From contig JAIEMM010000010.1 of NCBI GenBank assembly GCA_019752125.1, positions 6,558 through 70,557 on the forward strand: a DNA stretch of 64,000 bases, read 5' to 3'. The translations under genes and the position numbers were made by a program. This document shows, in pieces, positions 55,663 through 57,187 of the stretch. Position 1 is the stretch's first letter. Every line of letters starts with the position of its first letter. The notes beneath the pieces were generated by a model, which was not told where the DNA came from, ran no database searches, and worked only from the letters and a program-made list of their open reading frames with translations. Source of the DNA: Patescibacteria group bacterium (GTDB taxonomy: Bacteria > Patescibacteriota > Minisyncoccia > Phycocordibacterales > SBAW01).

Positions 55663-56571
55663 CTAAAAACACTCTTCGACTAATTCCGCACAGGTTTTAA
55701 AAACGTAAATCTTTTCTTTTGAAATTTTGAACCTATCGCTTAAGAATTCTACGGTTTCTGCTGGATTACGAGATTCGCTAACTGTGACAAAAATTTGATT
55801 AACCGTTTTGGAAAAATCCAGTTTACTCAAATTATATTTGAGACCACCCCCTAAACCTAAGATAAACAGATTTAATTTATCAGCATACGCATCATGTGTG
55901 ACAGTGTGAGGATCACTCTCATAACACGAAACAGCGTCTATATATCCTCCTACACCACTCTTCATTGTGCGATAATGTCTTTTCGTATGAGAATCATTTG
56001 GGATTTCATCTTTTTCGTAAAGACTACCATGTGCGTACAGAACAGGTACAATTGTCTGTAACAGTTGCCCTAGTCGCGATCTACTGTTAAGTCGTTGGCG
56101 TTTCCCTGGCAAATGCGCGAAACGCAGGAAATTTTTCTCTAATACATTATCGTAGTTATAACTTACGAAAGCGAAACTATCTTCCAATTTGATTCTAGAG
56201 TTTTCTACAATTTTATCGTTCAATAATGTAATCCATCCAAGTTTATTTTCCTTGTATACATCGTTGAATATATCTTTCATCACAGCGAAGAGCTCATTTT
56301 CTACACTGTCGCCATCTGTGTGATAGGCTTCTGACACTGATTCTTTTTCTATACACTCATCAATTGTCTTATACTCTTTTTCTTTGTTCTCCCCCACCTT
56401 ATCAAGCCAAGCAAGCACATCCTTTGCACGAGGATATTGGTTGCCAGCTTCGCTTTTTAATCTTCCCCTCATCAATGAATCTAATTCATTCCATGTCGGC
56501 AGATCATAGTCCTTAGAAGCCCCTGCCCCTAGAATAAATATATTATTTCTATAGCTGAGATTGAATTGCAT
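55663..56571 (-). CDS. SIR2_2-family (DHS-like NAD-binding) protein, standalone
   Basis: NIFILGAGASKDYDLPTWNEL, AFVSYNYDNVLE, VLYAHGSL, LFILGLGGGL are the hallmark blocks of SIR2_2-type domains; 302 aa; local GC about 36%. Confidence 0.6.
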   Translation of the reverse strand: MQFNLSYRNNIFILGAGASKDYDLPTWNELDSLMRGRLKSEAGNQYPRAKDVLAWLDKVGENKEKEYKTIDECIEKESVSEAYHTDGDSVENELFAVMKDIFNDVYKENKLGWITLLNDKIVENSRIKLEDSFAFVSYNYDNVLEKNFLRFAHLPGKRQRLNSRSRLGQLLQTIVPVLYAHGSLYEKDEIPNDSHTKRHYRTMKSGVGGYIDAVSCYESDPHTVTHDAYADKLNLFILGLGGGLKYNLSKLDFSKTVNQIFVTVSESRNPAETVEFLSDRFKISKEKIYVFKTCAELVEECF

Positions 56572-56575
56572 CTTG

Positions 56576-56646
56576 CTGCCAGACTAGGATTCGAACCTAG
56601 ATAAACAGATTCAGAGTCTGTTGTCCTACCATTAGACGATCTGGCA
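56576..56646 (-). tRNA. tRNA-Gln (anticodon CUG), U1-A72
   Basis: Reverse complement TGCCAGATCGTCTAATGGTAGGACAACAGACTCTGAATCTGTTTATCTAGGTTCGAATCCTAGTCTGGCAG with anticodon loop CTCTGAA. Confidence 0.9.
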
Positions 56647-56800
56647 ATTTGTACACCGGAGACGGCAATACCGCTTCAAAATACACTAAAAATGAGCTTA
56701 TTTCAATTTTATTGAAATTTCATCATCCTTTTTGCTATACTAGGCGCAAGCTCATAAGGAGCTCATTCGGGATTGCCCGCGACCTCGCGAAAGCGAGGGT

Positions 56801-57187
56801 CTATCTAAAGAGGCGAAGATACGCCTCTTTTATGTTTTCAAAGTCCGTCTTGTTTACATACCCCATTCTTTCTTTGAGGCGTTTAAAATTAAAAGTGCGC
56901 GTTTGATTCAACATTGCTGTTTGAAGTATGCCTCTATGTCTAAAGGTGATGTACCAATCTCCCGAACGGCGATTGCTTGTAAGTGGAATGCCAAGAAAAC
57001 TAGAAGGTCCAAATCTTTTTAAAATAATAACTGGCCTGGTAAATTTGTCGCTTTTTCCACCCACCTCTGTTCCAACATTTTCCCCTACATGGCACCACCA
57101 GATATCGCCTTCCGAGACGAACGGCGGATTATGAGTCTGCCCATCAATTTTCTTTTTCACATGAATCCACTCAAAGAATTGCTTCAC
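56801..57187 (-). CDS. PemK/MazF-fold toxin-like protein (no cognate antitoxin ORF evident)
   Basis: EGDIWWCHVGENVGTEVGGKSDKFTRPVIILKRF matches the GD-vy-vdl-p-vGsEqgG-RPvlvl core of MazF/PemK/EndoA; hairpin terminator aaagaggcgaagatacgcctcttt. Confidence 0.55.
   Translation of the reverse strand: MKQFFEWIHVKKKIDGQTHNPPFVSEGDIWWCHVGENVGTEVGGKSDKFTRPVIILKRFGPSSFLGIPLTSNRRSGDWYITFRHRGILQTAMLNQTRTFNFKRLKERMGYVNKTDFENIKEAYLRLFR

Follow-up and report, generated by a model that had tools for sequence, protein, structure and literature searches.

The immune SIR2 domains (SIRim or SIR2_2) of ThsA, DSR1/2, SIR2-HerA (Nezha), SPARSA, Avs5 and KomC share a Rossmann core with a GAGxS loop, catalytic Asn and His residues, a helical insertion after the first β-strand, more than six strands and no zinc site, and in each of these systems a sensor accompanies the domain, as a fusion or as a partner, be it SLOG/Macro, a large C-terminal domain, HerA, a prokaryotic Argonaute (pAgo), STAND or KomA/B. 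Two other kinds of SIR2-like protein stand alone. AbiH of Lactococcus lactis (PF14253), a chromosomal protein of ~300–350 residues that is carried in mobile or variable DNA and has neither a fused sensor nor an obligatory partner, is the precedent for abortive infection by a single SIR2-like gene (PMC13064643), and the human FAM118B and FAM118A are non-canonical sirtuins of ~300 residues. Here we describe SIR2L, a stand-alone SIR2-like protein of 302 residues encoded next to a tRNA-Gln gene in a 64,000-nucleotide stretch of contig JAIEMM010000010.1 of a Patescibacteria group bacterium (the whole stretch being called the window), and a 128-residue protein of the PemK/MazF fold on the other side of the same tRNA gene. 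Our reading, to which we give slightly more than an even chance, is that the tRNA-Gln gene is a resident one with an independent accessory module of a single gene on either side, and that SIR2L is a self-contained, AbiH-like abortive-infection effector that consumes nicotinamide adenine dinucleotide (NAD+).

In spite of the features that it has in common with these proteins, SIR2L differs from each of them: (i) Thoeris combines a SIR2 protein carrying SLOG/Macro with the TIR protein ThsB, whereas SIR2L has no such sensor and no TIR gene lies in its scanned neighbourhood. (ii) DSR1 and DSR2 join SIR2 to a large C-terminal sensor in proteins of ~1000 residues; SIR2L has only 302, and the members of its family range from 292 to 356. 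(iii) SIR2-HerA, SPARSA and Kongming have HerA, a short pAgo or KomA/KomB beside them, whereas the neighbours of SIR2L are a transmembrane (TM) protein, the tRNA, PemK and a PGA_cap protein. The original prediction had indeed noted neither a fused sensor nor a TIR, HerA or pAgo partner, and none of the three was found among the neighbours scanned (~52.1–58.2 kb). (iv) The AbiH profile PF14253 touches only 2 of 26 SIR2L family members, both below threshold; AbiH belongs to another phylum and resides in integrative and conjugative elements, whereas the SIR2L family occupies the 3' flank of tRNA-Gln and tRNA-Asn genes and restriction-modification (R-M) operons. (v) FAM118B, although the second-best structural match of SIR2L (9r3e), is a vertebrate, filament-forming protein that requires its paralogue for NAD processing (PMC12700824). 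Defence-type SIR2 proteins, solo MazF proteins and tRNA-flanking islets are thus kinds of element already known; what is new is an unannotated SIR2L family with an unusual and recurrent genomic wiring.

Three lines of evidence, namely fold, motifs and profile chaining, place the predicted protein in the SIR2 superfamily despite its missing every curated cut-off of the hidden Markov models (HMMs). Because its match to the SIR2_2 HMM is sub-threshold, the assignment required both fold and profile evidence. The AlphaFold2 model built from the family alignment is of high confidence (pLDDT 93.9, pTM 0.91) and has a 10-stranded α/β core with a helical insertion after the first strand, the helices lying over residues 16–132. 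Searched with Foldseek against the PDB, it gave 11 matches at E<=1e-3, all of them to defence SIR2 proteins or FAM118B, including SIR2-HerA, FAM118B, DSR2, SPARSA, KomC and ThsA (E 2e-4 to 1e-3, probability 0.91–1.0); AVAST5 fell just under this cut-off, and human SIRT2 and SIRT3 ranked lower. The motif blocks that had been read in the translation are present, FILGAGASKDYDLPTW at residues 12–27, NYDNVLE at 139–145 and HGS at 181–183, and they correspond to invariant or near-invariant columns of the family. In a 26-sequence alignment the invariant columns are LGAGxS (14–19), P25, W27, T69, D71, E77, N139-Y-D141, C216, G239/G241, N247 and T263, and H181 is kept in 25 of the 26. The Rossmann NAD-binding loop (L14-G15-A16-G17-x-S19, with P25 and W27) is thereby entirely conserved, and it lies in a segment that aligns to the Kongming NADase KomC, the best PDB match by sequence in a profile search. 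N107-Y-D109 and H146 of KomC align with N139-Y-D141 and H181 of SIR2L, in a part of the alignment that is weak alone; H146N is the deposited inactive mutant of KomC.

Immune SIRim proteins have been separated from sirtuins by the lack of a Cys4 zinc module, at least seven β-strands and a helical insertion after β-1 (bioRxiv 10.1101/2024.09.18.613514). Neither SIR2L nor its family alignment contains CxxC pairs or a Cys4 module, and Pfam SIR2 (PF02146) gave no match at E<=1. By these criteria, applied to the sequence and the model, SIR2L is predicted to lie on the immune side and not to be a CobB-type deacylase; the original prediction was right in setting it apart from such sirtuins, there being no zinc ribbon and no Pfam SIR2 match, and the best structural matches all being anti-phage SIR2 proteins or FAM118B.

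The family to which SIR2L belongs is unannotated, and PADLOC, Pfam and NCBIfam miss the window gene. The protein itself is identical (100%) to a 'hypothetical protein' of a Patescibacteria metagenome-assembled genome (MAG). Among 5.8e9 proteins we identified 31 homologues, all of ~300 residues and without precomputed SIR2-related Pfam domains, and in 185,579 species genomes 24 SIR2L loci. A profile search of 1.84e9 cluster representatives delimited the family as 44 clusters at E<=1e-30, surrounded by a further halo of ~1281 proteins, mostly of 290–350 residues; a scan of ten distant halo matches found three above the Pfam SIR2_2 cut-off and several matching the PADLOC SIR2, LmuA or Aga_SIR2 models. 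Within the family, PF13289 (SIR2_2) matches 11 of 26 members weakly, and 25 of 26 match the PADLOC SIR2 model PDLC04087. Its members are almost confined to Patescibacteria MAGs, where they occur in many lineages; no member was found in the viral contigs of IMG/VR, a result that is neutral as to the function of SIR2L. One member, at 6001–6903 of a 775-kb contig (L005), has TGA codons at the invariant Trp columns W27 and W55, so this organism reads UGA as Trp (code 4) and not as Gly (code 25).

The features of the locus are the following (coordinates of the window):

55663–56571, minus strand: SIR2L, a 302-residue open reading frame (ORF), single-domain protein of predicted SIR2_2/SIRim type
56575/6–56646, minus strand: tRNA-Gln(CTG), found by ARAGORN and by Rfam (66.9 bits), a resident chromosomal gene
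56801–57187, minus strand: solo PemK/MazF-fold protein, 128-residue ORF
54885–55628, minus strand: 247-residue membrane protein (TM247), an ORF with three TM segments predicted by a hydropathy scan
54123–54815, plus strand: RluB-type pseudouridine synthase, beyond TM247
57269–58219, plus strand: PGA_cap protein, beyond the 128-residue gene, with CTP synthase and FtsX/FtsE also on that side
56678–56706, minus strand: promoter-like site TTGAAA-17-TATTTT upstream of tRNA-Gln, inside a block conserved in the relatives L050 and L059
54884–56572: variable slot A, from the tRNA-Gln 3' end to the RluB 3' flank, holding SIR2L and TM247
56711–57252: variable slot B, from the PGA_cap start to the tRNA-Gln promoter, holding PemK
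54839–54884: 46-nt element bounding slot A on its distal side, with a second copy at 52095–52140

The two ORFs and the tRNA gene lie where the original prediction had put them. Read along the minus strand, the order is the 128-residue ORF, a 154-nt spacer, tRNA-Gln, the 302-residue ORF and the 247-residue membrane protein, and the tRNA is the only RNA that Rfam detected. The GC content of the interval that spans both ORFs, first given as about 36%, measures 39.1% (SIR2L 37.2%, PemK 41.1%), against 47.5% for the whole window. An integrase-type island could not be delimited, since the tRNA-Gln 3' end has no att-type direct repeat anywhere in the window; no integrase lies nearby either.

The flanking genes put the host organism next to Candidatus Adlerbacteria, and the relatives compared were Candidatus Adlerbacteria RIFOXYC1_FULL_48_26 (L059/L060), L050 and L061 (Paceibacterota). 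The closest of them, L059, has amino acid identities of 92% for PyrG, 94% for RluB and 74% for PGA_cap; L050 has 79% for PGA_cap and 90% for RluB; and L061, whose PyrG is 85% identical, carries neither SIR2L nor PemK. At the nucleotide level L059 aligns with the window in the blocks 50485–51236, 53696–54883, 56573–56710 (94%) and 57253–62579, with the DNA in between unaligned. The third block is the tRNA-Gln gene with its promoter: the tRNA is 90–94% identical to that of the relatives, and identity stops at 56573. Slot A, with flanks 87–94% identical at the nucleotide level across relatives, holds in L059 a 125-residue ORF and a 519-residue DUF5677 protein, and in L050 a 163-residue membrane or coiled-coil ORF followed by a SIR2L 41% identical to that of the window, which is not its sister in a distance tree. 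Slot B has zero nucleotide similarity to L050 or L059, with both of its sides aligning, and contains an unrelated 82-residue ORF in L059 and unrelated DNA in L050. Since L050 and L059 carry different cargo between flanking genes that are 74–94% identical, the locus is an accessory islet, richer in AT and next to a tRNA gene; SIR2L and PemK are both accessory and hypervariable, they occupy separate slots, and the slot of SIR2L starts exactly at the tRNA 3' end. The defence islet that had been proposed beside the tRNA is therefore borne out by relatives with other cargo at exactly these positions, and the two genes are not universally syntenic, the nearest full relative lacking both. They look like separate stand-alone defence or toxin genes. 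The two cargo ORFs of L059 (5242–6801) miss NCBIfam, and the DUF5677 protein also misses PHROGs; they are possibly another defence cargo.

These comparisons bear on the idea that SIR2L is a housekeeping CobB-type deacylase or another metabolic NAD enzyme, as its SIR2 superfamily fold and the presence of SIRT2 and SIRT3 lower in the Foldseek list could suggest. We find this hardly credible: besides having no PF02146 match and no Cys4 zinc motif, SIR2L is rare and patchy in distribution, is absent from the nearest relative L059, and has only 41% identity in L050, where the flanks have 79–90%.

The 128-residue protein, for which a PemK fold had been proposed, matches Pfam PemK_toxin (PF02452) at 37 bits against a cut-off of 23.1, and over its full length phrog_9567, 'MazF-like growth inhibitor', at 71 bits. 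Its AlphaFold2 model is of medium confidence (pLDDT 73), and every top Foldseek match in the PDB is a MazF (probability 1.00), which bears out the SH3-like barrel fold. Across 16 homologues R51-P52 and P68 never vary, and a Thr/Ser after P68 is conserved; from what is known of the E. coli and B. subtilis MazF proteins, we take R51 and this Thr/Ser to be the catalytic Arg and Thr positions. The protein thus resembles type II toxins such as S. aureus MazF and B. subtilis EndoA/YdcE in fold and in its Arg-Pro and Pro-x-Thr positions, and differs from them in having no MazE/PemI antitoxin gene, in an extra N-terminal helix (residues 2–16) ahead of the MazF core, in being solitary and in having a phage 'moron' family as best HMM match. 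As had been noted, no free-standing antitoxin ORF lies beside it: none of >=20 residues exists in the 81-nt upstream or the 154-nt downstream gap. Neither was there a sign of a small-RNA antitoxin, Rfam being empty and a repeat scan of 50–59 kb giving no tandem array near PemK. At the three homologous loci examined (L008–L010) the gene is solitary as well, lying between uvr genes, ribosomal-protein genes or by an aminoacyl-tRNA synthetase gene, with no antitoxin gene called and no SIR2. The subfamily formed by these and the window protein has a conserved N-terminal helix and a low-confidence linker, always without an antitoxin gene. As a further, secondary possibility, the helix might serve in cis as an antitoxin built into the protein, and the absence of MazE would then be accounted for. 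By homology and fold the protein is probably a MazF-type endoribonuclease of a phage-moron-like subfamily found always alone.

The original prediction had gone further, and had suggested that SIR2L and PemK possibly form a minimal pairing. Such a two-gene system, in which an NADase effector would act together with an RNase toxin, draws on the fact that both genes are effector-like, AT-richer than the genome, on the same strand and 230 bp apart. It nevertheless seems very improbable to us, given that a tblastn search found no PemK homologue in any retrieved SIR2L locus, that the three PemK homologues examined are solitary and without SIR2, and that between the two slots, which are replaced independently in L050 and L059, stands a conserved tRNA gene that has a promoter of its own. 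The pairing finds no support here, and PemK appears from these comparisons to be functionally unrelated to the SIR2L gene.

How SIR2L is expressed is suggested by its position. Its ATG (56571) lies 3–4 nt past the last base of tRNA-Gln, and the sole candidate promoter is the promoter-like site of the tRNA gene. As this gap leaves no room for a promoter or a Shine-Dalgarno sequence, SIR2L would be driven from the tRNA-Gln promoter as a tRNA–mRNA co-transcript. The same context recurs in the family. In 29 non-redundant loci a same-strand tRNA lies <=300 nt upstream of 11 of 28 SIR2L genes, and all 11 are tRNA-Gln (CTG or TTG) or tRNA-Asn; among other ORFs the count is 6 of 397 (Fisher p ~1e-10, without correction for phylogeny). 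Five more loci have a tRNA-Gln 0.7–4.3 kb upstream with inserted genes in between, and the tRNA-Gln context is spread across the entire family tree. Partial direct copies of the tRNA-Gln 3' end occur in L014 (~4841) and L021 (~7837 and ~7916); they are found in the stretch from the tRNA to SIR2L, never beyond SIR2L, and are scars of earlier integration or excision at these tRNAs.

From this enrichment, its scatter over the whole tree and the gap too short for a promoter or Shine-Dalgarno sequence in the window, one could argue that SIR2L is functionally tied to tRNA-Gln and tRNA-Asn, being expressed or activated, for example, according to the transcription, processing or integrity of the tRNA, acting on these tRNAs, or acting on prophage integration at their att sites. 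We consider this unlikely. About half of the loci have no nearby tRNA, and others lie behind methyltransferases, a TIR gene or an integrase. The tRNA of the window is a resident gene whose 3' end is a mere breakpoint of a slot that also holds non-SIR2 cargo (L059, L061), and integration targeted to a tRNA usually leaves scars such as the copies of L014 and L021.

Where no tRNA adjoins, many SIR2L genes are closely coupled, in the same direction, to other defence genes. In L003 and L015 SIR2L follows an EcoRI-type methylase at a distance of 1 or 13 nt, and L003 also has GmrSD-HNH a short way downstream. In L042 (2191–7881) SIR2L belongs to a type III operon whose genes, mod-SIR2L-99aa-res, are <=5 nt apart, and in the code-4 genome of L005 (3819–10249) to a mod-SIR2L-197aa-res operon; the two mods are 31% identical, and the small ORF that each operon also carries is unrelated. 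In L041 (4671–6870) tRNA-Gln is followed by a 377-residue TIR-domain protein and, after a gap of 37 nt, by SIR2L, an arrangement of TIR and SIR2 like that of Thoeris except that this SIR2 has no SLOG/Macro sensor. The SIR2L ORF of L041 has no ATG, GTG or TTG start before residue ~120. Other neighbours include a Schlafen-like helicase/GIY-YIG/S24 protein (L026), a tyrosine integrase (L049), RhuM (L037) and, nearby, CBASS (L001). An all-against-all comparison of neighbours in 32 loci revealed no conserved partner of any kind, the immediate neighbours being unrelated. This also disposed of the membrane protein, present in the window and in L050, as a candidate partner; TM247 has zero Pfam, PADLOC, NCBIfam or PHROG matches, and tblastn of the retrieved loci showed that it is not conserved beside SIR2L elsewhere.

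These couplings are what recommends a different explanation, in which SIR2L is an add-on effector dependent on a partner that senses nucleic acid (R-M or TIR), the window copy being an orphan or working with a partner encoded elsewhere. Two type III systems related at 31% carry it, one with gaps of <=5 nt, methylases lie 1–13 nt and a TIR protein 37 nt upstream of it, and FAM118B requires FAM118A for activity (PMC12700824). On the other hand, the methyltransferase-linked genes form one subclade of the tree (from which L005 was left out), most loci, including that of the window, have no such neighbour, and the partners are of unrelated kinds, which favours hitch-hiking on upstream transcription over a specific complex. 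We therefore rate this explanation as unlikely, though with an appreciable chance of being right. The closeness with which SIR2L follows methylase, mod and TIR genes suggests that it generally borrows upstream transcription. Whether the family as a whole is a promoter-less 'plug-in' NADase module, wired to whatever adjoins upstream, is a bolder proposition that we put forward as a long shot.

Returning to SIR2L as a self-contained effector, the mechanism that we infer would run as follows. By fold and motifs the protein is a bare SIR2_2/SIRim Rossmann domain with its helical insertion, having kept the GAGxS loop and the Asn/Asp/His catalytic positions and lacking the zinc module. Basal expression would come by read-through from the tRNA-Gln promoter, a phage cue would activate the protein through its own helical insertion and/or oligomerisation, and the activated enzyme would hydrolyse or otherwise consume NAD+ and so halt the infected cell. 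The MazF-type protein in the other slot would have a separate function.

Several observations weigh against this reading: (i) FAM118B alone has minimal NADase activity and requires its paralogue FAM118A (PMC12700824), and a SIR2 protein reduced to the bare domain may therefore depend on a partner. The close coupling of many SIR2L homologues to methyltransferases or a TIR gene hints at such dependence, and no partner gene is seen in the window. (ii) The whole of the 302 residues is SIR2 domain in the AlphaFold2 model, with no evident sensor domain. (iii) The SIR2_2-type domain named in the original prediction is upheld by fold, motifs and profiles and not by its own HMM, the match to PF13289 being sub-threshold at 16 bits (cut-off 24.5, E 0.013). 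The PADLOC run that had been proposed as a check gave one SIR2 model at E 0.003, below threshold, and NCBIfam and PHROGs gave no match (below threshold in NCBIfam). (iv) The Foldseek TM-scores are modest (0.35–0.47). (v) Patescibacteria are episymbionts, and a role in intercellular conflict is thus conceivable.

That last point leads to the view of SIR2L as a toxin directed at the host of the episymbiont or at other bacteria, an ADP-ribosyltransferase or NADase without a part in phage defence. The lifestyle of Patescibacteria, the ability of SIR2 enzymes to ADP-ribosylate and the membrane protein co-located in the window and L050 are compatible with it. We think it decidedly improbable, as we observed no signal peptide, secretion-associated neighbour or immunity gene pattern, and the neighbourhoods are dominated by R-M, CBASS, GmrSD and TIR genes.

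Beyond the two slots, a third window-specific insertion relative to L059 spans 51237–53695 and contains a 228-residue ORF (51303–51989, plus strand), a HIT-like gene (52113–52550, minus strand) and a radical-SAM/SPASM gene (52611–53576, minus strand), swapped in L059 for a DUF2200 gene. For the radical-SAM protein we rejected the label of viperin: PADLOC pVip scores 86 bits, but NCBIfam viperin scores 70 against a cut-off of 180, and generic SPASM maturases fit better. The two copies of the 46-nt direct repeat are 83% identical, and L059 5188–5232 matches both. One copy spans the last codons and the 3' flank of the HIT-like gene; the other, conserved in L059 and L050, comes after the stop of the 247-residue gene, on the border of the SIR2L slot. 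In appearance the repeat is either the end of a gene that was duplicated or a scar left by recombination, linking the two slots. A supposed four-copy 24-nt motif after consecutive minus-strand genes was discarded, alignment leaving this 46-nt two-copy repeat as the one genuine repeat. In L061 (12524–14708) a Cas1 gene and an IS605 OrfB (TnpB-like) gene lie between ftsE and ftsX, which adjoin in the window.

Little has been charted of the defence systems of the Candidate Phyla Radiation, and SIR2L is missed by standard tools. Being among the smallest defence-type SIR2 proteins, it raises the question of how an effector is controlled without a sensor domain or a partner, and the recurrent positions of its family, at the 3' flank of tRNA-Gln and tRNA-Asn, in the gap between mod and res and behind EcoRI-type methylases or a TIR gene, yield testable hypotheses of regulation. 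If the plug-in proposition were true, a system that senses DNA or a signal would gain abortive infection as a back-up wherever SIR2L is embedded between mod and res or follows a methylase or TIR gene; 3' of tRNA-Gln or tRNA-Asn, the expression or activation of SIR2L would be coupled to the transcription, processing or integrity of the tRNA, or to a phage occupying the att site, and SIR2L would be a sentinel at integration hotspots. The tRNA-Gln locus itself is a clean natural example, in a genome of ~1 Mb, of adjacent replaceable slots between conserved genes.

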